A stretch of DNA of 64,000 nt from Euryarchaeota archaeon UBA558 (GCA_002507175.1 DAZE01000005.1:20980-84979), one strand, 5' to 3'; shown: positions 47,676 to 61,034, counted from the stretch's first letter. The notes: a model not told the origin generated them from the letters alone. Made by a program: numbers and translations.

Positions 47676-50600
47676 TCAATTATCCTGTTTGGATCTGATT
47701 CCTATTGCTGCGGTTAGCAATGCGATCATAGCCATGTAGAGTCCAAAACCGGGCAAAAGGCCACCATCCTCAGGCTTATCCACACATCCCGTTTGAGATG
47801 TCAACGGTTGATGCTGACCGGCTGGACAGGGGGTCTGTTCCACTGATCCCGACTCAGACGAGAAGAAGTTAGTGGAGGTGAATGTGCAAGAGCTTTGGCC
47901 TTCTAGTGATTGATAGGTGCCTGGCGGGCATGGGATCTGTTCTGTGGCAGCGAGGTTGTCCACGAAATTTCCTCGATCCGCGAGCAAACACTCGGAGGAG
48001 CCGATGTTTGGTTGATAGGTCCCCTTTTCACAGGCTGTCTGGCTTAGCTGTGAATTGGAATCGACAAAGTGGCCACTATCTGCCTGAATACAAGATGTCG
48101 AGGCTGAGATAGGTTGGAAAGTCCCCACTCCGCATGCTATGAACTCAGTTGCAGAACTGTCAGGTACATAATGTCCAGCTGGGGAATCACGACAACTCGT
48201 GGACTTCGCCATTGATTGATACGTACCGGGCTCACAAGGGATTTGGTTTACAGACCCTATCTCATTTGTGTAGTGGCCTGGTTCGACGTCTTCACAGTTA
48301 GTCTGTCCGCTCAAGGGTTGGTAGGTCGTCAGAGGGCATGGGATCTGGTTTTGTGAACCCTCACCAACTACATAGTGACCGGCGTCCCCCAAAAAGCACT
48401 CAATTGATCCTGGATTTGGCTGGAATGTTCCTGATGCACAGATCACATAGTCAATCGAGCCCTCGTTTGGTACGTAGGAGCCAGGGATTGCAGAGAGGCA
48501 TGTTTCAGCACCACTATTTGGTTGGTATGAGCCAGGACTGCATGCAATGGCTTCGGTGGATCCAACACCGGATGTGTAGTACCCGGGTTGTGTGACCTCG
48601 CAATCTATCGAACCCTCGAGGGGTTGGTACCTTCCTGACAAGCAGGGTTGGAAGGACGTGGATCCTGCAGTTGATACGTAGTATCCAGCAGGAGCAAGAA
48701 TGCAACTCGTGCCAGCTGAGTTTGGTTGATAGGAACCTGGTTGACAGGTTTCGGGATGGGTCGATGCATCGACCGAAGTGTACTGTCCAGGAGATGTCGA
48801 TGAGCACGAAATAGAGCCCTCAATGGAGCTATATTGTCCCGGTGGACAGGGGGTCTGTTCCGTGGCTGAAGTACTGTCAACATAGTATCCAGGGCTTGCC
48901 CTTAAGCAAGCGGTTGCTCCATGTGTTGGAGAGTATCTACCGACTGTGCATGGAGATTGGAAGGTCTTCCCTGGGGTCTCCACCATGTGACCAAGATCAG
49001 CAAGGATGCAAGTCGAGGCTCCTGAGTTGGGTTGGTAGGAGCCAGCGGGACATATGGTCTGCGATAATGCGCCCTCATCAGGAACATGGTAGCCTGGATT
49101 TGAGTCTATGCAGGACGCTTGCCCCCCGTCGGGTTGGTAGGTCCCACTCTCACAGATGACGAGGATCCCTGGTTGACCCCCTTCCGCATAGTGACCTGGC
49201 GGGGATTCTTCGCAGGAGTTAGGACCATCTTGATACCATCCGGTGGGACAGCCTACGGGCCACAGGTCGAATGGGGAATCAAGCCCGTCATTATCCGAAT
49301 CGAGGTCACCCAGCAAAATCTTCGCCGTTCCTGGAGGATGCATGATTTCCGGGACCCGAGTCCCCCACCAGGTCTGATGGGAGGTCTGGTTAACATTGTT
49401 CCATGCATATGCGCCCCAGCAGTGGATCTCGTTTGAGGAATCCAAGCCACAAGCGTTCGCAGCACCCATCACTACTGCAATATAATTTCCACCCGTGTAG
49501 ACCTGATGGGGCGCCGAGCGATCCTCACAATCTATGTTGTATCCGCCGCCAGACCCTCCCATGTAGTTGCATATCACTGAGTTCGAACCATTGTAGTCTC
49601 CAGTGTTGCCGCCCCAATTGTCACCCCAGCAATAGGCCCCGGTTTGGTCGTACATCGCACACGCTTGTGCGGTTGTGGCGGATATGCTCGTCATGCTCTC
49701 TCCTGATGGGCCTTGGATCAGAGTTGGAACCACGGCATAGGGTTGGTTGCTATTGTTGCCTATCCCTTGTTGGCTCTCAGTGTTGGCACCCCAGCAAACA
49801 CCCTCTCCTGAACCGGTCATCGCGCACGAAAACACCCATCCATTGGCAGCCTGAACGAAAGATAGGTTCGCCACATCTTGGATCGTGATTTCGGTGTTTG
49901 ACATTTCCAGCTTTCTGGGACTGCTTGTAATCCACCAGTAGCCGCAACCAGGGGCTTCGGTTATAGGATCAGGATCAACAATATCCCCGCCAGTGACCCT
50001 GCAATTCATGTCAGATCCCCAGCAATACATCCCACCATCGGTGCCCGTAGCACATGTGTGTTCGCCTCCCACGCTTACGGAGGTCACCGAGACCCCCCCT
50101 GGCATGGCGATCAATTCAGGAGTCCTTATGCCAGATGCGCTGTCGTCGCATGGGTTCACGTATGTAACAATCGATCCATCCCAATCAAAGCAGATCTGCC
50201 CGTTCCCAACCTGCCCCCTGTCGTTGTTCCCCCAACAATAGAGGTCCCCATCGGTGCTGATCACGCAGGAATGAGAACTCGGCCCCTGTGAAAGTGATTT
50301 AGCAACGACTCCCTGGGGCAAGAGGACCAGTGACGGGACAAGTTGGTTGCCCCCTATCTGCCCGTTACCGATCTGCCCACGCTCGTTGCTGCCCCAGCAG
50401 TAGACGGCTCCTTGTGACGTCAGGCCGCATGCGTGGTCTAGGTGTGCTGAGACCTCTACAATGCCCATTCCGTCAAGTGCATCCACGTAGGTCATGTTGT
50501 GGTAGACCATTTCGCCTTCGACTCCAATTCCAGTTTGACCGAAGTCTGTCCTTCCCCAGCATAGCACGCTGGAGTTCTCAGTGATAGCGCAGGCGAACTG

Positions 50601-50810
50601 CCTCCCGATCGAAAGCGTATCAAGGGTGTCGATATGGCCCAGTACTTGGCCTGGTGAATTGCTGGAAATGGACCTCAGACTAATCTCATCCGAAGGAAAC
50701 TCGATTTCTGTTTGTGATCCTGATTCAACCAACAGAGAATGTGTTGAAAATAATACCATCATTGTTGCAAGAAGTATGCCTGTCCACGGACCCTTCGCCA
50801 TGAGGGGCAT
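47676..50810 (-). CDS. Large secreted cell-surface protein: signal peptide, RCC1-like beta-propeller repeats, ~14 tandem Cys-rich repeats, PGF-CTERM anchor
   Basis: The N-terminal signal/TM reads MPLMAKGPWTGILLATMMVLFS. Repeated CWG(x)N(x)(R/G)GQ(I/V)GNG blades (CWGSNERGQIGNG, YCWGNNDRGQVGNG, VCWGANTESQQGIG) indicate RCC1/BLIP-II-type repeats. These are followed by about 14 tandem ~33-aa units of consensus C.PG.YQPNSG...C..A..G.Y(V)…, which are ephrin-receptor-like / GCC2_GCC3-like Cys repeats. The C-terminus …LPGFGLYMAMIALLTAAIGIRSKQDN is a PGF-CTERM archaeosortase sorting signal (PGF, then TM, then basic residues). Confidence 0.8.
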   Translation of the reverse strand: MPLMAKGPWTGILLATMMVLFSTHSLLVESGSQTEIEFPSDEISLRSISSNSPGQVLGHIDTLDTLSIGRQFACAITENSSVLCWGRTDFGQTGIGVEGEMVYHNMTYVDALDGMGIVEVSAHLDHACGLTSQGAVYCWGSNERGQIGNGQIGGNQLVPSLVLLPQGVVAKSLSQGPSSHSCVISTDGDLYCWGNNDRGQVGNGQICFDWDGSIVTYVNPCDDSASGIRTPELIAMPGGVSVTSVSVGGEHTCATGTDGGMYCWGSDMNCRVTGGDIVDPDPITEAPGCGYWWITSSPRKLEMSNTEITIQDVANLSFVQAANGWVFSCAMTGSGEGVCWGANTESQQGIGNNSNQPYAVVPTLIQGPSGESMTSISATTAQACAMYDQTGAYCWGDNWGGNTGDYNGSNSVICNYMGGSGGGYNIDCEDRSAPHQVYTGGNYIAVVMGAANACGLDSSNEIHCWGAYAWNNVNQTSHQTWWGTRVPEIMHPPGTAKILLGDLDSDNDGLDSPFDLWPVGCPTGWYQDGPNSCEESPPGHYAEGGQPGILVICESGTYQPDGGQASCIDSNPGYHVPDEGALSQTICPAGSYQPNSGASTCILADLGHMVETPGKTFQSPCTVGRYSPTHGATACLRASPGYYVDSTSATEQTPCPPGQYSSIEGSISCSSTSPGQYTSVDASTHPETCQPGSYQPNSAGTSCILAPAGYYVSTAGSTSFQPCLSGRYQPLEGSIDCEVTQPGYYTSGVGSTEAIACSPGSYQPNSGAETCLSAIPGSYVPNEGSIDYVICASGTFQPNPGSIECFLGDAGHYVVGEGSQNQIPCPLTTYQPLSGQTNCEDVEPGHYTNEIGSVNQIPCEPGTYQSMAKSTSCRDSPAGHYVPDSSATEFIACGVGTFQPISASTSCIQADSGHFVDSNSQLSQTACEKGTYQPNIGSSECLLADRGNFVDNLAATEQIPCPPGTYQSLEGQSSCTFTSTNFFSSESGSVEQTPCPAGQHQPLTSQTGCVDKPEDGGLLPGFGLYMAMIALLTAAIGIRSKQDN

Positions 50811-52524: not shown

Positions 52525-52639
52525 ATGAATGCTGCTAAAACCGTTCGGTGAAGGTTATCACAAATACTGAGCCAATATCGAACTTAATGTATGGGGGTTT
52601 AAGGGGGGCGCAGTCCTTAGGCGACTCCGAGGAACAACC

Positions 52640-54862
52640 ATGGCAGACGGAGAGGGAGAACTCACGCTTAGGGTCGCTAAGGCCATACCGAGTGACGTCG
52701 GACATGGTAGGGCCAGGGTACCGTTCGATAACGATCTCAATCTCAAGCCAGGTGACGTCATTGAGATCAACGGAGAAAAATCAACGGCCGCGATTGTTTG
52801 GCGGTGTAGGCCCGAGGACGCTAATCTTGGAGTCATTCGAATTGACGGCATCATACGAAAAAATGCATCAGTTTCCCTGGGAGACAGAGTAAACATCCGG
52901 AAGGTTGAGGTCACCGAATGCGAGAAACTGGTTCTTTCACCGGTAATGGCGAAACAACAGAAGGTCAGGTTTGGACCGGGTATCGAGGGTTTTGCAAGAA
53001 GAGGCTTGAACAAGAGGCCTGTCGTATCAGGAGACAGGATTTTTATTCCGGGAATGACGTTGTTTGCAGAAGCCCTGCCCTTCCAGATCGTGAGCACCAA
53101 GCCAAAGGGGATTGTACAGGTCCTACCGTCGACGGAGATCGTCATCAAAGAAGATCCCGTTGATGAGGAAGATGAGAGCATCATACAATCAATATCCTAC
53201 GAGGACATTGGCGGGCTCGGTGACCAACTCCAAAAAGTCCGAGAAATGATTGAACTTCCATTAAAACACCCAATCCTCTTCCGCAGGCTTGGGATCGATC
53301 CGCCCAGGGGTGTTCTCCTTCACGGACCTCCTGGGACCGGAAAGACACTGATAGCCAAGGCCGTTGCTGCTGAGACCCAGGCCCACTTCACCTCAATAAA
53401 CGGGCCAGAGATAATTTCGAAGTATTATGGAGAAAGCGAGAAGCAACTTCGCGAGATTTTTGACGATGCCACCTCCAACGCTCCGGCCATCATCTTCATC
53501 GATGAGCTTGACTCCATCGCACCCAAGAGAGAGGACGTCAGTGGCGAGGTCGAAAGACGAGTTGTCGCCCAGCTCCTCACCTTACTAGATGGAATGCAGG
53601 GCCGGGACAATGTCGTGGTGATCGGCGCAACCAATAGGAGAGACGCCATAGACCCTGCTCTCAGAAGACCCGGACGATTCGATAGGGAACTTGAGATTGG
53701 GGTCCCGGATAAGAACGGACGTTCTGAAATCATCGACATCCACACACGCGGCATGCCGATCAGCGATGATTTCGAGATGGAATGGTTGCTGGAGAACTCC
53801 TATGGTTTCGTTGGGGCGGACATCTCTGCACTTGTCAGAGAATCGGCTATGAAGGCACTCCGAAGGTATCTCCCTGAGATCGATCTGGATCAAGATGAGA
53901 TACCCGCAGAGGTGTTGGAGAAAATGGAAGTTAAGATGGCGGACTTCCGAGAAGCGATCAAGGAAATCGAGCCAAGTGCACTCAGGGAGATTTACGTCGA
54001 AGTCCCAACGGCATCATGGGACGACGTGGGCGGTTTGAGCGAAATCAAGGAGCGCCTGAAAGAGAGCATTGAGTGGCCTTTGAACCAACCGGAGACTTTC
54101 GAACACTTCGGGATCAAACCCCCTCGTGGAATCGTACTCTTCGGGGCTCCCGGCACAGGTAAGACCTTGATCGCAAAGGCAATCGCGAATGAAGCAAAAG
54201 CCAACTTTATCTCGATCAAAGGCCCAGAGATGATCTCGAAATGGGTCGGGGAATCTGAAAGAGCGGTCAGAGAGGTCTTCAAGAAGGCGAAACAGGCTGC
54301 TCCTTCCATCATTTTCCTTGACGAGTTTGAGTCAATAGCGGGGGTTCGTAGGTCGATGACAGGCGAGGGATCGGACGTCATGAACAGGGTTGTCAATCAA
54401 ATCCTATCAAGCATGGACGGGGTGGAGTCGATGGAGGGCGTGATCGTGGTCGCAGCCACAAACAGGCCTGAAATGATTGATCCGGCACTCCTCAGGAGTG
54501 GTAGATTCGAGAGAGTCCTGCACGTCCCTCCCCCAGATAGGCAGTCGAGGTTGGAGATCCTCAAAATACACTCCTCCGAGATGCCATTAGGCCGGTTCAA
54601 GCTCGATGACATCGCTGACGACCTCGAGAACTACACTGGTGCTGACATAGAAGCAATATGCAGAGAGGCGGCCTTGATTGCCATGAGGGCGGGCAAGAAG
54701 ACAGTATCAAAGAGCCATTTCGAAGAAGCTGTCAACAGAGTAAGGCCAACGGTCAACAAGGACATGCTAGAGTACTACTCCAAGATGGAGGAGACACTTG
54801 TCAGTGGCCTGGAGTCTGTCAAGAGGAGCACCAACTCTCTTCAAGGCATTGAGTCAGTGTGA
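52640..54862 (+). CDS. cdc48: Cdc48/VCP-like AAA+ ATPase (N domain + D1 + D2)
   Basis: A double-psi-barrel N domain is present ([17 protein letters not shown]…[18 protein letters not shown]). Two AAA modules each carry a Walker A ([16 protein letters not shown]) and Walker B/SRH. It is 740 aa. Confidence 0.9.
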
Positions 54863-55107
54863 TCGCTATGCCATCGGGTTTCGGCCGTGAAATTCTGAAT
54901 CGTCCGATACTCGATGGCGCAGGTGACACTCTTGGGCATGTATCCGACCTCGTAATGGATACGAGGACCGGTGATGTGGTGACCCTGCTAGTTATGATCA
55001 GCGAGGAACTCGATCCGGCTCTACTCCCCTGGCCAACTGTGGATGGGCTTCTGGAGGTTCCCACTAACGAAGTTGCCGAAGTCTCAAATGCCATACGGTT
55101 GAGATAG
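54859..55107 (+). CDS. PRC-barrel domain protein (small, ~80 aa)
   Basis: Its start (GTG 54859 or ATG 54868) overlaps the cdc48 stop. The sequence [29 protein letters not shown] matches the PRC-barrel pattern (V.d..G..lG.V.dv.hd..tG.v..l.v). Confidence 0.55.
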
Positions 55108-55160
55108 CTAGATCTCACAAAGTCGGACAACCGTCTTATAGCGTTGGATTCGGTTGGCAC

Positions 55161-56831
55161 ATGCTGCTGGGCGGTGGACTGATGATGAATGGGCCGAGGC
55201 GATCTTCCAAGATCTTCAATCGGACGAATAGACAAAGACTCCTACAGTTCTCTTTTTGGTCTGTTTTGACACTCTTAATCGCGTTCATCGCATCGACCTA
55301 CATCGTTGATGGGAAGACACAACAATCCGCATATGGGGACGACTGGGATGATCTTGGCGATTTCAGATCTGAAATTAACTCAATGGGGGTCGAGACAACA
55401 GCCATGGTTTCAAGCCCACTCCTCCTCTCTGAAATCGATAACCCCGAGGAAACTGTGTTTGTTGTGTCCGGGGTGGAACGTGACACGATATCCCTACCTC
55501 GATTTACAGATGACGAATCCATTGTTGAACTGTCTGACTCCGACGGCTACACTGGCTCAGAGATCGAGGCAATCGTGGAGTACGTGCAAGCAGGTGGAAC
55601 ACTCCTCTTGATGGATGACTTCGGGTACTCGTCTGCACTGGCCCAAGAATACAATATTGTCTTCTCGAATCATCAATTGTATGACGGAGAGGCATGGGCC
55701 AGGGAGCTAGATTACAACTACGTCTGGACGAATGTCACCAATGCTCACAATCTTACTCAGACCTCTGGATCGACCTCAGTTTACCACCCGTGTTTAGCAG
55801 ACAGGGATTCGGACCTAATTCTGGACTTGATCGACCCTGACCCAGATTCGCAGAATGTGGGATTCATCCCAACCGATGACTCATTCGGGATGTGCGGGCA
55901 CCGTTGGGACTCCGAACAAAAGACCTATGATTTCTCTGAGAGTTATAACCTCCTGACTAGCAAACCATCTGCATTCGACAAAGAGTCCTCGTTCTCCCCA
56001 GCGGAGAATCGCTATCCGATAATCGTCTCTACGCTGGACTCCTACTTAGACTCAAATGATGATGGGGATTTGACCCCGGCATTTGAGGCAGCCGGGATAC
56101 AAGGGGACGAACAGGGACCATTCGCAGTTTATGCCAGGATCTGCTCTTCCAGACTGTGCGCTGAGCCTTCCTCAGGACAGGTCCACATCGCCTCAGACGG
56201 CTCACTCCTCATCAATGCAATATACTCATCATCGAACATCGATGGATCTAATGTCCCTGACAATGATAACAGGTTATGGGCATTGGACATAATCGCTGAT
56301 GCCCTATTGATTGGGAATAGTTCCTTGAAGCCGAGTGAGAATGCCGTGGTAATTTTCGATGAGAGTCGACATCAACAAACGAACCCACTTTCCGACACAT
56401 ACAATTTAGCATACTACTTCCTTGTGTATTTCACAAATGATTGGATGGCGATGCTCATACTGTTCCTTGCGCTCTTCATGATGTTGGAAGTGGTACTTAT
56501 TCGCAAAGAGGACCCAGAGGACTGGCGGCATGTCTTTAGGATAATTTACTATGGTTTTGGTGATGCAAAGAGGTATGAGTTTTATCAGCACCCAGACAAA
56601 ATAAGACAGGTATTTTTGTCAAAGATAAGGAGCACAAACACGATGACGAGGGAGGAGTTCGACTCGTTGTCATCGGAGGAGCTTCAAATTCTAGTAGACG
56701 ATCAAGTGCTACTTCGATTTATTTATGATAATCGCAAGTACAAAACCCAAGAACTGGTTGCTATCGTAAAGAGAATGCGAGAATGGGGCCCAGACGACAA
56801 TGAGCCAGACGAAGATCTGATGGACATGTGA
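55161..56831 (+). CDS. Membrane-anchored protein, DUF4350-like (N- and C-terminal TM helices flanking a large extracytoplasmic domain)
   Basis: An N-terminal TM (FWSVLTLLIAFIASTYIV) is followed by a ~370-aa acidic ectodomain with YVQAGGTLLLMDDFGY, resembling the DUF4350/GldG-like GG(T/S)L(L/V) segment. A C-terminal TM (WMAMLILFLALFMMLEVVLI) and a cytoplasmic tail follow. Family assignment is tentative. Confidence 0.45.
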   Translation: MLLGGGLMMNGPRRSSKIFNRTNRQRLLQFSFWSVLTLLIAFIASTYIVDGKTQQSAYGDDWDDLGDFRSEINSMGVETTAMVSSPLLLSEIDNPEETVFVVSGVERDTISLPRFTDDESIVELSDSDGYTGSEIEAIVEYVQAGGTLLLMDDFGYSSALAQEYNIVFSNHQLYDGEAWARELDYNYVWTNVTNAHNLTQTSGSTSVYHPCLADRDSDLILDLIDPDPDSQNVGFIPTDDSFGMCGHRWDSEQKTYDFSESYNLLTSKPSAFDKESSFSPAENRYPIIVSTLDSYLDSNDDGDLTPAFEAAGIQGDEQGPFAVYARICSSRLCAEPSSGQVHIASDGSLLINAIYSSSNIDGSNVPDNDNRLWALDIIADALLIGNSSLKPSENAVVIFDESRHQQTNPLSDTYNLAYYFLVYFTNDWMAMLILFLALFMMLEVVLIRKEDPEDWRHVFRIIYYGFGDAKRYEFYQHPDKIRQVFLSKIRSTNTMTREEFDSLSSEELQILVDDQVLLRFIYDNRKYKTQELVAIVKRMREWGPDDNEPDEDLMDM

Positions 56832-58090
56832 TAGCGATGTGGACAAGAAAGGCAACGATGATGCTCGTCGGGGGGGTATCACTCATTCTAGTGGGGATGA
56901 TGGTGAGCCATTTCCATCTGATGATTCTGGGCATGCTCATGGTATCTTTGCTGGTAATGGCCAGTTGGATAAGCGGATATCCAAAACTGGTCGTTGAGAG
57001 GGAATTGTCTGAAGAAAACGTGTACAAAGGAGACGACATAACTGTGACACTCACGATCAGCAACCAATCAAGACGAAGAACACAAACCTTGGATATCTAT
57101 GACAATGTGCCTCATGAAATGAAGATCAGAAGGGGAATAAACATGATCAGAGCTAACCTTGGACCAGGACAATCAACCGTGTTGAGATATACTGTTAGGT
57201 GTCCATTGCGAGGCCACTTTTCCATAGGCCCCACTTCCTTGAGATACAGGGACGTATTTGGGCTGTTTACCGATGAGGGCGTAGCAGACAAGAGGAGCGA
57301 CGTGATCGTATTCCCCCAGGTCAGGGACATCGAGGATGCGTTACTTCGATCAAATGTCCCCAAGATGTATACTGGAGCCACTACCTTGAGGACACCAGGT
57401 CAGGGAACCGAATTTTACTCACTTAGGGAGTATATGCCAGGTGACTCATTTAGGTCGATTAATTGGAAGGCCTTCGCGAGAACAGGGGACCTTATGGTTA
57501 ACGAGAAAGTCCGCGACGCAGTCACTGACGTCCACATTCTCTTCGACACAAGGGACATTTCTAGGATCGGTACAGTGCTCAAGAATCCACTGGAGATGGG
57601 GGCCGTGGCTACTGCATCCGTATCCAACCATTTCATCAGAAGGCGAGATGCAGTCTCACTGACAACTTATGGTCGGAGGATGGACCATCTTCCTGCAGAG
57701 GCAGGGGATAAGCAACAATACAAGATCCTGAGCCTACTTGCTGGGGTATCTGCAGGAGGAACAATGCCCCTCCAGGCAGTGACCAATGCGCTAATACCTA
57801 GGATGAATCGAGGCTCACCAGTTTTCGTTGTTAGTAGCCTTGAGGGAGACGGGACCACATTGCCTGCGATAAGGGCCTTGTCCAGTCACGGACATACTGT
57901 TTATGTCCTCTCTCCCAATTCAATTGATTTGGAGCGACTTGTGAGTAGAATTCCAAGGATGGCGTATGAGGTGTTAAAGATGGAGCGGCAAAATAGGCTG
58001 ATGTCGTTGAACGGCTACGGCGCTAACGTGATTGATTGGGTTCCGGACATTGACCTCGCACAAGCTCTATTGCAAGTCAAAAAGGGATAG
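56828..58090 (+). CDS. DUF58-domain protein (vWA-like, MoxR-associated family) with N-terminal TM helices
   Basis: The classic DUF58 motif YSLREYMPGDSFRSINWKAFARTGDLMVNEKVRD (REYxxGDxxRxIDWKxxARxxxLxVxE) is present after two N-terminal TM helices and a downstream vWA-like region. It has an ATGA overlap with the preceding gene. Confidence 0.8.
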   Translation: MIAMWTRKATMMLVGGVSLILVGMMVSHFHLMILGMLMVSLLVMASWISGYPKLVVERELSEENVYKGDDITVTLTISNQSRRRTQTLDIYDNVPHEMKIRRGINMIRANLGPGQSTVLRYTVRCPLRGHFSIGPTSLRYRDVFGLFTDEGVADKRSDVIVFPQVRDIEDALLRSNVPKMYTGATTLRTPGQGTEFYSLREYMPGDSFRSINWKAFARTGDLMVNEKVRDAVTDVHILFDTRDISRIGTVLKNPLEMGAVATASVSNHFIRRRDAVSLTTYGRRMDHLPAEAGDKQQYKILSLLAGVSAGGTMPLQAVTNALIPRMNRGSPVFVVSSLEGDGTTLPAIRALSSHGHTVYVLSPNSIDLERLVSRIPRMAYEVLKMERQNRLMSLNGYGANVIDWVPDIDLAQALLQVKKG

Positions 58091-59332
58091 GTGAGTGAAT
58101 TGAGTTCCGAGGGAGTTGAAACTGGTAAATCTCTGAGATTACGATCCGTCAGGACCCGCTGGCAGATCTTGGCCTTACAACTCGTGGCGACTGCGTCACT
58201 GGCCGCTCTTGTGTTGACCATGACTTCGAAATATGGGGAATGCGATCAGGACTTCATTCAAGAAGCAGATGGCGAGAATTATTGGTGCCCAGCATTTGAG
58301 CATACTCGCGGGATTGTCTATGTAGAGGACTCTTTCCAACGGGAATCAATCTTGCCGGACATCATTACGGGCGCCGACCAAGTAGGCAACTCATCATTTT
58401 TGTACCCCACAATTTTTTGTCTGTTCCTAACCGGCGCCCGTGCTTACACGTCCACTCGGGGGGCAAAATTCCGTCGAAGATTAAGAGTTGGAATTTATAC
58501 CATGGCTCTACTTTTCGGTTTGGGCCCCTTCCTCTTCGAATGGATATCTGGAATGGTCACTTACAGGCAAGCATACATCCCATTCGGCCAGAATCTGGAC
58601 ATATTCAACCATGCTGACAGGCTCTCGGTTCCAATGCAGTTGATTTCAGAGATCATTGTAATGGGAGTGGTCTTCGTTCCAGTTTTATTTGGTCTGATTG
58701 GAATATGGAACCTCTCAATGAGGTCAATAGTGGCGACCATGAGTTACGTTGTCATGTTCATCATGTTCCACGCCCTATTGACATTCGAGGCTGTACTTGA
58801 TTCAGTTCAGGGTATAGGGCTGAAGCCACTCCCTGCGCAGATCGGAGAATCTAGCATGTTCGGTGGATTGGTTTCACCACTCGCGTTTGAGCTGATTACG
58901 ATCTCAGTGGTCCTTTTTTTGTTCTACGAATCCTCTCACATGTGCATACGCCTGTTTGAGTACGTAGCTATGTTGCCAGAGAGCGCCCGGACTGACAGCG
59001 AACACATCAGGATGTTTCAAACCGTACTGAACACTCATCTCTTCCAACTCTTTGGTGTTATCTCCTTAGCGACTCTCCTGACTGCAATAGCATTGGATTT
59101 CGATGATATTCTGATAACCGTAATTTCTGAGTTTCAACCAAATCAGTGGAGTCAGCAGGTCAAAGACTCGCTGGAGTTGCAAATGACCTATGGTAAGGTA
59201 ATTTCAGCAGGTCTATTCCTCCTCTTCGTGAGCATGGCCCGATATCTTGTTCCATGGCAATTGGTCCTGGGTTGGTTTGAGTCACTATTCAGAGGAGGCT
59301 CGAAAAAGCCCGCTTCTGATTCTGAAAGGTGA
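58091..59332 (+). CDS. Polytopic membrane protein of unknown function (last gene of the Cdc48-led cluster)
   Basis: It starts (GTG) 1 nt after the DUF58 stop and is 413 aa with about 8 TM helices. No catalytic motif was recognised. Confidence 0.45.
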   Translation: MSELSSEGVETGKSLRLRSVRTRWQILALQLVATASLAALVLTMTSKYGECDQDFIQEADGENYWCPAFEHTRGIVYVEDSFQRESILPDIITGADQVGNSSFLYPTIFCLFLTGARAYTSTRGAKFRRRLRVGIYTMALLFGLGPFLFEWISGMVTYRQAYIPFGQNLDIFNHADRLSVPMQLISEIIVMGVVFVPVLFGLIGIWNLSMRSIVATMSYVVMFIMFHALLTFEAVLDSVQGIGLKPLPAQIGESSMFGGLVSPLAFELITISVVLFLFYESSHMCIRLFEYVAMLPESARTDSEHIRMFQTVLNTHLFQLFGVISLATLLTAIALDFDDILITVISEFQPNQWSQQVKDSLELQMTYGKVISAGLFLLFVSMARYLVPWQLVLGWFESLFRGGSKKPASDSER

Positions 59333-59334
59333 AA

Positions 59335-59640
59335 TTACCTTATTTTGAGTATACGCTCGACGACCCGGACGGTGATCTCCGAAGCAAACAAGGAAATCAA
59401 AATGAATGCTGGATAGACAAATAGTGACGAATTACCGAAGTCTGGTAGAATCACTCCTCTAACGTGAGAGGCCAATGAGATCGCCCCAATGATGCAGGCG
59501 GAAAGTACAGCCCTTTCCAACCAAGGAGTGGACCTTCTTCCACTAGGGAGACTGGAATTTGGAAGGGGCGGTGTTGAGTTCATAACAATGCGAGATGTGT
59601 CTGATGGAAGAACCCTCCTCCTTCCATTGCGTTCAAACAT
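59335..59640 (-). CDS. Small hypothetical membrane protein (101 aa, 2 TM)
   Basis: It is convergent with the cluster above and has two hydrophobic helices. There is no other support. Confidence 0.3.
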   Translation of the reverse strand: MFERNGRRRVLPSDTSRIVMNSTPPLPNSSLPSGRRSTPWLERAVLSACIIGAISLASHVRGVILPDFGNSSLFVYPAFILISLFASEITVRVVERILKIR

Positions 59641-60707: not shown

Positions 60708-61034
60708 ATGCAACGAGAAGATTTGGAAAGTATGACTGTGGCTAATCTGAAGGTTTTACTCTCGGAACTATCCCTACCCGTCTCAGGTAAGAAAGCCGAA
60801 CTCATAGATAGAATTCTCCAGAACCAAAGTCCTGATACTATTGAGGTGGAACCTTCGTCTGAGAAGGAAATCGACGACGGGAACCAAGATCCTACTCGCG
60901 AGGATATCGAAACAGTAGTCTCAAAAATGGTGGAAGGTCGAATCGTTAATGAAGAATCAGAGATAACTCTCCAAACAATAGTCTTGATTGGCGTCGTAAT
61001 CCTTGCCTTGGGGTTGGTTGTCTTTTCTCTCTGA
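60708..61034 (+). CDS. SAP-domain protein with C-terminal TM anchor
   Basis: The N-terminus LESMTVANLKVLLSELSLPVSGKKAELIDRIL fits the SAP helix-extended-helix motif (L..LkV.eLR.eL..RGL...G.KaeLieRL). An acidic linker follows, then a C-terminal hydrophobic helix (TIVLIGVVILALGLVVFSL). Confidence 0.55.
   Translation: MQREDLESMTVANLKVLLSELSLPVSGKKAELIDRILQNQSPDTIEVEPSSEKEIDDGNQDPTREDIETVVSKMVEGRIVNEESEITLQTIVLIGVVILALGLVVFSL

Follow-up and report, generated by a model that had tools for sequence, protein, structure and literature searches.

A MoxR-less DUF4350-DUF58 membrane module beside cdc48 in marine group II archaea is probably a unit of its own

MoxR-type AAA+ ATPases are usually paired with von Willebrand factor A (vWA) or DUF58 partners, and bacterial operons of this type include the tgpA operon of Pseudomonas, the mycobacterial moxR1-Rv1480 operon and the Bat operon of Bacteroides. 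The bifidobacterial PFNA cluster also carries aaa-atp, duf58 and tgm genes (PMC8430577). In archaea, many PRC-barrel genes adjoin genes for Cdc48 ATPases, a relatively frequent neighbourhood in the arCOG genomes to which its describers assign no function (Zhao et al., bioRxiv 10.1101/2023.03.28.534520). Here we analyse a 64,000-nucleotide (nt) stretch of DNA from Euryarchaeota archaeon UBA558 (GCA_002507175.1 DAZE01000005.1:20980-84979; the window, by which we mean the whole stretch), in which five open reading frames (ORFs) on one strand fill positions 52640-59332: cdc48, a PRC-barrel gene, and genes for a DUF4350-like protein, a DUF58 protein and a polytopic membrane protein called X. A preliminary description of this DNA had seen the same five co-directional genes, which our ORF calls confirm, as a translationally coupled cluster led by cdc48. 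It left open whether a Cdc48 unfoldase is paired here with a DUF58 module in a way not described before, or whether a housekeeping cdc48 happens to precede a module without MoxR. The window matches contigs of marine group II metagenome-assembled genomes, those of UBA487 and UBA182 almost identically.

Our results suggest that the region is probably made of two neighbouring units, a cdc48-PRC pair and a DUF4350-DUF58-X module served by a MoxR in trans, and is not a five-gene machine. When representatives clustered at 50% identity were searched exhaustively, full-length relatives of the DUF58 protein came up at about 27-41% identity, and the nearest outgroup homologues (36-39% identity in pairwise comparisons) lie in eight independent genomic contexts. 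MoxR (AAA_3) stands directly upstream of DUF58 in 8 of the 8, DUF4350 precedes MoxR in all six that reach that far, and the order, wherever the contig reaches, is DUF4350-MoxR-DUF58-small membrane protein; none of the eight has a Cdc48 neighbour. A TgpA-type transglutaminase of 1500-1900 amino acids (aa) lies upstream in loci L090, L093 and L094. By their NCBI names, the oceanic loci L091 and L092 belong to marine group III, and relatives of the outgroup-module MoxRs to Thermoplasmata and Thermoplasmatota. The window has the DUF4350 gene upstream of DUF58 and the homologous membrane protein gene downstream, without an adjacent MoxR. As had been noticed before, MoxR is missing from the entire window, in which we found no AAA_3-type Walker A motif and no tblastn match below E 0.1 with 11 MoxR queries. 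Among 80 species-level genomes of Poseidoniales (marine group II, MGII) compared for gene order, no MoxR lies beside DUF58 in the flanks that were retrieved (up to 10 kb). In the window, no transglutaminase (Transglut_core/DUF4129) occurs next to the module or among the other large ORFs. Because all of the nearest outgroup modules have MoxR before DUF58, the ATPase gene was lost from inside the operon, and the window module is a canonical TgpA-DUF4350-MoxR-DUF58-X set minus MoxR and TgpA. The loss of the transglutaminase suggests that the complex is no longer coupled to protein cross-linking.

The window module resembles the outgroup clusters (L081-L094) and a Thalassarchaeaceae module (L095-L097 and L111-L120) in its homologous DUF4350, DUF58 and fourth proteins, in gene order and orientation, and in its tight junctions. 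It differs from these canonical modules in that no MoxR stands between DUF4350 and DUF58, in the larger ectodomain and X (DUF4350 556 versus ~415 aa; X 413 versus ~210-320 aa), and in a DUF58 that falls into a separate clade; it also has cdc48-PRC in the upstream position and no transglutaminase there. With the bacterial operons (PFNA, tgpA, moxR1-Rv1480 and Bat) it has in common a DUF58 protein with an N-terminal membrane anchor, encoded among genes that are associated with the envelope and normally powered by a MoxR-type AAA+ ATPase. The bacterial MoxR genes adjoin DUF58, whereas the MoxR considered here is unlinked, and the bacterial sets do not as a rule include DUF4350 and X.

The three module proteins differ in how readily they are assigned to families. 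The DUF58 protein scores 63.1 bits against PF01882 (cutoff 23.4) and is 64-100% identical across the order. It is predicted to consist of an N-terminal transmembrane (TM) hairpin, an Ig-like sandwich and a DUF58 domain of the vWA clan: the hairpin is visible in the hydropathy profile, an AlphaFold2 model gives hairpin and beta sandwich for residues 1-160 (predicted local distance difference test, pLDDT, mostly 75-88 by block), and the C-terminal part, modelled from a shallow alignment, has an alternating beta/alpha pattern at pLDDT below 50. The DUF58s of the window type form a long-stemmed clade of their own that spans both Poseidoniales families, apart from the MoxR-linked DUF58s. The earlier naming of the DUF4350-like protein is weak in Pfam, where the match to PF14258 (22 bits, E 2e-4) lies below the 30.4-bit cutoff and is faint in relatives too, but it is upheld by full-length BLAST homology, tail included, to outgroup PF14258 proteins (E 5e-27). 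Hydropathy places TM segments at about 30-50 and 426-450, and the predicted layout is an N-terminal TM segment, an ectodomain of ~375 aa, the second TM segment and a charged cytoplasmic tail of ~105 aa; identity across the order falls to 40% at the lowest. X has about 7-8 hydrophobic segments and a lowest identity of 29%, and neither it nor the canonical fourth gene has a family in Pfam or NCBIfam library scans. Nevertheless, an hhalign comparison shows the X family to be homologous to the small membrane proteins encoded after DUF58, as fourth gene, in canonical modules (probability 97.2%, E 3e-11, residues 196-402). The two have in common the motifs ...ES.ELxxxYG... and F.ES....IR..EY. A relationship of X to TgpA_N was considered and dropped for want of support. 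DUF4350 and DUF58 also occur fused in one chain of 695-755 aa (P0174, P0193, P0199 and P0223), in another lineage and with no MoxR gene between the two domains; such fusions may be taken as Rosetta-stone evidence that the two proteins act together.

The upstream pair has a different character. The cdc48 product carries CDC48_N, CDC48_2, two AAA and AAA_lid_3 domains in Pfam, has Walker A motifs at residues 228 and 501, and scores 980.9 bits against TIGR01243 (cutoff 802.65), placing it in the CDC48/VAT family. Its best solved relative is VAT of Thermoplasma acidophilum (5g4f, E 4e-263), with which it shares the N-D1-D2 architecture over its full length (see also 5g4g and 5vc7), and it is 70-99% identical across Poseidoniales. 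It is a highly conserved VAT orthologue, the general unfoldase of the cell, and not a specialised paralogue. Set against VAT, the window protein ends in GIESV and lacks a penultimate tyrosine; order-wide the C-terminus (window 54773-54862) reads G(I/M)E(S/L/A)(V/I/M/A), again without that residue. By the HbYX rule, a missing penultimate tyrosine argues against classical docking to the 20S proteasome, and because it is missing here the classical HbYX motif appears to be absent from Poseidoniales Cdc48. Upstream of the gene lie a Shine-Dalgarno-like GAGG (52629-52632) and an element, GGGTTTAA(G/C), which a comparison of 16 Poseidoniales loci shows to be kept in most of them and which we infer to be the cdc48 promoter.

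Each of the 71 loci that extend past cdc48 has the PRC-barrel gene directly after it, whose product scores 37.2 bits against PF05239 (cutoff 21.2; E 3e-9), matches the solved PRC-barrel chain 8qzo marginally (E 0.4), and falls to 27% identity across the order. The domain calls of the preliminary description for Cdc48, PRC and DUF58 thus all lie above the family cutoffs. The overlap it reported between the cdc48 stop and the PRC start holds if the start is GTG 54859; with ATG 54868, where most relatives' proteins start aligning and which is the likelier start judging by these alignments, the gene begins 5 nt past the stop. Across the order this gap varies between roughly -4 and 70 nt, being ~20 nt or less in Thalassarchaeum-type (MGIIb-like) loci and mostly ~55-70 nt in Poseidoniaceae-type (MGIIa-like) loci. 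A small single-domain PRC-barrel gene directly beside a Cdc48-family ATPase gene is just the arrangement described by Zhao et al., so that the adjacency is already known in archaea and the window provides one more conserved, order-wide example. Its product is a possible partner of Cdc48, or possibly a PRC protein of the cell-division (CdpB-like) type.

Between this pair and the module lies a spacer that is present in every locus (34-71 nt when projected onto the N-terminus of the window protein, up to ~110 nt to the nearest ATG) and that in the window is the 53-nt gap (55108-55160) reported before. In comparison, the DUF4350-DUF58 and DUF58-X junctions overlap or are separated by ~14 nt or less order-wide, and the DUF58-X gap in the window is indeed 0 nt. 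The ATGA overlap formerly given for DUF4350 and DUF58 is not there: the junction reads ATG-TGA-TAGCG-ATG, which allows either a GTGA overlap (GTG 56828) or a 5-nt gap (ATG 56837), and the latter is more likely the start because relatives' proteins begin MWTRK. The whole cannot well be called translationally coupled, since a real spacer always separates PRC from DUF4350; cdc48 and PRC, too, are mostly ~55-70 nt apart in MGIIa-like loci. Across 15 divergent lineages, the spacer holds a single conserved block (cAcAAcSGTCTTAAG / GTCTTATA / GTCATAAA / TTCTAAAC), in whose TATA part TCTTATA, TCATAAA, TTCTAAA and TATTAAA occur besides TCTTAAG. The block resembles an archaeal B recognition element (BRE) plus TATA box and appears to be the module's own promoter; a promoter between PRC and DUF4350 had been proposed as something to look for, and a conserved candidate is what the sequences contain. 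In the window, the TATA centre lies only ~24 nt 5' of ATG 55161, which would make the module mRNA leaderless; other lineages have a longer leader after the element, with a GGTGG/GGAGG motif.

Two further observations concern this spacer. In Thalassarchaeum-type loci (L013-L043, e.g. L014:1860-1887), CCGTTCA occurs exactly 13 nt 5' of the TATA-like box, a combination that hardly occurs in the rest of 1.49 Mb of sequence. CCGTTCAG also stands 12 nt 5' of CTTTAG before the unlinked MoxR described below (L100:9860-9900). A common regulator site for the module and that gene was considered and dropped as too weak, as one match of a 7-mer could be chance.

MoxR itself is not missing from Poseidoniales. 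With a profile built from the outgroup MoxRs we retrieved abundant marine MoxR clusters, whose names and contexts reveal two kinds in Poseidoniales. One kind is a complete canonical module, DUF4350 (531 aa)-MoxR (351 aa)-DUF58 (439 aa)-X (313 aa), carried by some Thalassarchaeaceae; its members go by the names Ca. Poseidoniales and Ca. Thalassarchaeaceae, and their contigs reach 2.5 Mb. In sample ERZ28548084, window-type and canonical modules are found on separate contigs (about 1.5-1.7 Mb). The other is an unlinked MoxR found in about 65 metagenome loci (L121-L185, L192 and L199; GC content 0.36-0.61), invariably within a Prs-L7Ae-S28e-L24e-NDK-aIF5B-MoxR-ParA/MinD-like array (e.g. L131:5692-11900). 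Its named relatives, 85-97% identical, are Ca. Thalassarchaeum sp., Ca. Poseidoniaceae and Ca. Poseidoniales, on contigs of up to 1.97 Mb. The unlinked MoxR is 81-99% identical among these loci, even where aIF5B (33-99%) drops to 33-55%; this conservation is unusually strong for a MoxR and exceeds that of Cdc48. No DUF58 or DUF4350 match lies beside it in the flanks retrieved for the about 65 loci (up to 10 kb), whereas MoxR matches at 62% identity or less, where a neighbour can be seen, have DUF58 directly downstream. Since window-type modules and the unlinked MoxR alike occur throughout the order, they almost certainly coexist in the same organisms. The MoxR of this L7Ae-S28e-L24e-NDK-aIF5B-MoxR-ParA array is most likely the AAA+ partner of the module. 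A MoxR just beyond the window could not be placed by way of the Prs-L7Ae-S28e-L24e block. In the window's clade (L001:17667-21260) this minus-strand block begins to appear 8-10 kb past DUF58, and next to it, where NDK-aIF5B-MoxR would be expected, stands a MutS-like gene for a 669-aa MutS_V/HHH protein; the block has therefore been parted by a rearrangement from the MoxR array of other Poseidoniales.

We propose that cdc48-PRC would be an independent housekeeping pair, and that DUF4350-DUF58-X would be an operon under its own BRE/TATA-like promoter in the spacer. The three module proteins would form a membrane complex with the DUF4350 ectodomain outside, the DUF4350 tail and the Ig-like and vWA-type domains of DUF58 facing the cytoplasm, and X as a polytopic membrane subunit. 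A MoxR hexamer encoded in trans would then dock on the cytoplasmic DUF58 domain, and perhaps also on the conserved DUF4350 tail.

Several points weigh against this proposal. The pairing of MoxR with DUF58 in trans is something we infer, as are the module's independence of Cdc48 and, from prediction, the membrane topology. MoxR was not placed in the window's own genome or genus (L7Ae of the MoxR loci matches at 79% at most), and it was not found on one contig with a window-type module. The promoter function of the spacer block is read from its conservation, and a scan for bacterial-type intrinsic terminators and sigma-70 promoters, which is uninformative for archaea, showed no obvious terminator in this short spacer, so that read-through co-transcription from cdc48 into the module is possible. 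Furthermore, the adjacency of cdc48-PRC and the module is invariant in both families, and MoxR was lost in the very lineage in which the module adjoins another AAA+ unfoldase. It would also be conceivable that the module is a remnant that needs no ATPase at all, with MoxR serving other clients such as the canonical module and the cdc48-PRC adjacency being plain synteny. The long separate branch of the window-type DUF58s, the enlargement of the DUF4350 ectodomain and X over the canonical versions, the absence of TgpA as well, and the fusions that link DUF4350 and DUF58 without a MoxR gene between them are all in keeping with such an idea. However, it would have to set aside the rule that MoxR ATPases pair with vWA or DUF58 partners, and it leaves unexplained why the unlinked MoxR is so conserved with no DUF58 or DUF4350 in its flanks. 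The only DUF58 seen order-wide is of the window type, and it is strongly constrained, at least 64% identical throughout; we therefore regard an ATPase-independent remnant as unlikely.

It would be tempting to infer instead that Cdc48/VAT, perhaps with the PRC protein as adaptor, took over the DUF58/DUF4350 module from MoxR, be it to extract membrane proteins or for their quality control. It is precisely the DUF4350-DUF58-X operon that MoxR was deleted from, the spacer between PRC and DUF4350 is short (only ~50-110 nt), and the co-directional order is invariant: a minus-strand aldehyde dehydrogenase (ALDH) gene followed by cdc48-PRC-DUF4350-DUF58-X was found in 69 of 69 untruncated loci of both families without exception, the remaining 11 of the 80 being cut by contig ends, which for 80 species-level genomes is far beyond chance. 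Of the two observations that the preliminary description had named as speaking against a Cdc48 link, a gene order not conserved in relatives was thus not found, while MoxR genes at other loci and, at the level of sequence, a promoter-like element between PRC and DUF4350 substantially were. However, the flanking ALDH and TtuA genes, without any apparent functional relation to the module, are kept in place equally, and because these unrelated genes are also syntenic, conserved adjacency is on its own weak evidence of a functional link here. A takeover is further at odds with a Cdc48 that is no specialised paralogue, with cdc48/PRC-barrel pairs that are widespread and have not been reported with a DUF58 module, with outgroup modules that have no Cdc48 neighbour, and with a MoxR retained order-wide; the promoter-like element between the two units is conserved, while the spacing of cdc48 and PRC is not. 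We consider such a takeover improbable. That Cdc48/VAT and a PRC adaptor are wired to the MoxR-less module for envelope quality control, be it in place of MoxR or alongside it, seems very doubtful as well; if true, archaea would thereby have their first described case of a membrane module coupled to Cdc48. Of the two possibilities left by the preliminary description, the undescribed pairing has gained no specific support beyond adjacency. The housekeeping cdc48 before a MoxR-less module agrees with the VAT orthologue, the published cdc48/PRC pair and a module derived from the canonical MoxR one, and the eye-catching link to Cdc48 is probably a product of synteny.

Table 1. Genes and putative promoter elements of the cdc48-PRC and DUF4350-DUF58-X units, in window coordinates.
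Feature	Position	Strand	Basis
TATA-like TTTAA within GGGGGTTTAAGGGG, ~40 nt 5' of cdc48 ATG	52598..52602	+	conservation
cdc48/VAT, double-ring AAA+ unfoldase, 740 aa	52640..54862	+	Pfam, TIGR01243, VAT match
Single-domain PRC-barrel protein, 79 aa	54868..55107	+	PF05239
BRE/TATA-like ACAACCG-TCTTATA in PRC-DUF4350 spacer	55127..55140	+	conservation
DUF4350-family membrane protein, 556 aa	55161..56831	+	homology to outgroup DUF4350 proteins
DUF58 protein, 417 aa (alternative start GTG 56828)	56837..58090	+	PF01882
Polytopic membrane protein X (earlier '8-TM'), 413 aa	58091..59332	+	hhalign to canonical fourth gene

The surroundings of the two units vary more among relatives. Between X and TtuA, Poseidoniaceae-type (MGIIa-like) loci and one Thalassarchaeaceae-type subgroup carry an insertion of ~4 kb (L054:12626-16098, L048:12734-16246), which encodes a coiled-coil-looking protein of 1044-1061 aa and a minus-strand protein of ~110 aa, neither with a match in Pfam or NCBIfam library scans. 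In the window, the same interval holds a 101-aa ORF (59335-59640, minus strand) with two hydrophobic segments. It has no family in those scans, keeps 30-77% identity in the window's nearest loci and a few further MGIIb-like ones, and is probably a real small membrane protein. Upstream of ALDH, and kept only in the window's close relatives, is a 1044-aa protein (47676-50810, minus strand) with RCC1 repeats and ten Ephrin_rec_like repeats, a eukaryote-like architecture that is unusual for an archaeon. The plus strand at 60708-61034 encodes a small protein that has a SAP domain at its N-terminus (E 6e-12) and a TM helix at its C-terminus.

In the surface ocean, few archaea are as abundant as those of marine group II, of which, to our knowledge, none has been cultured; a conserved envelope system of theirs is therefore worth mapping. 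We suggest that the module described here would be a split, TgpA-less variant of the known MoxR-partner set, whose ATPase has been relocated to an array of ribosomal-protein and translation-factor genes. As such, it might offer a natural case for asking whether a genetically unlinked MoxR and DUF58 can work together.

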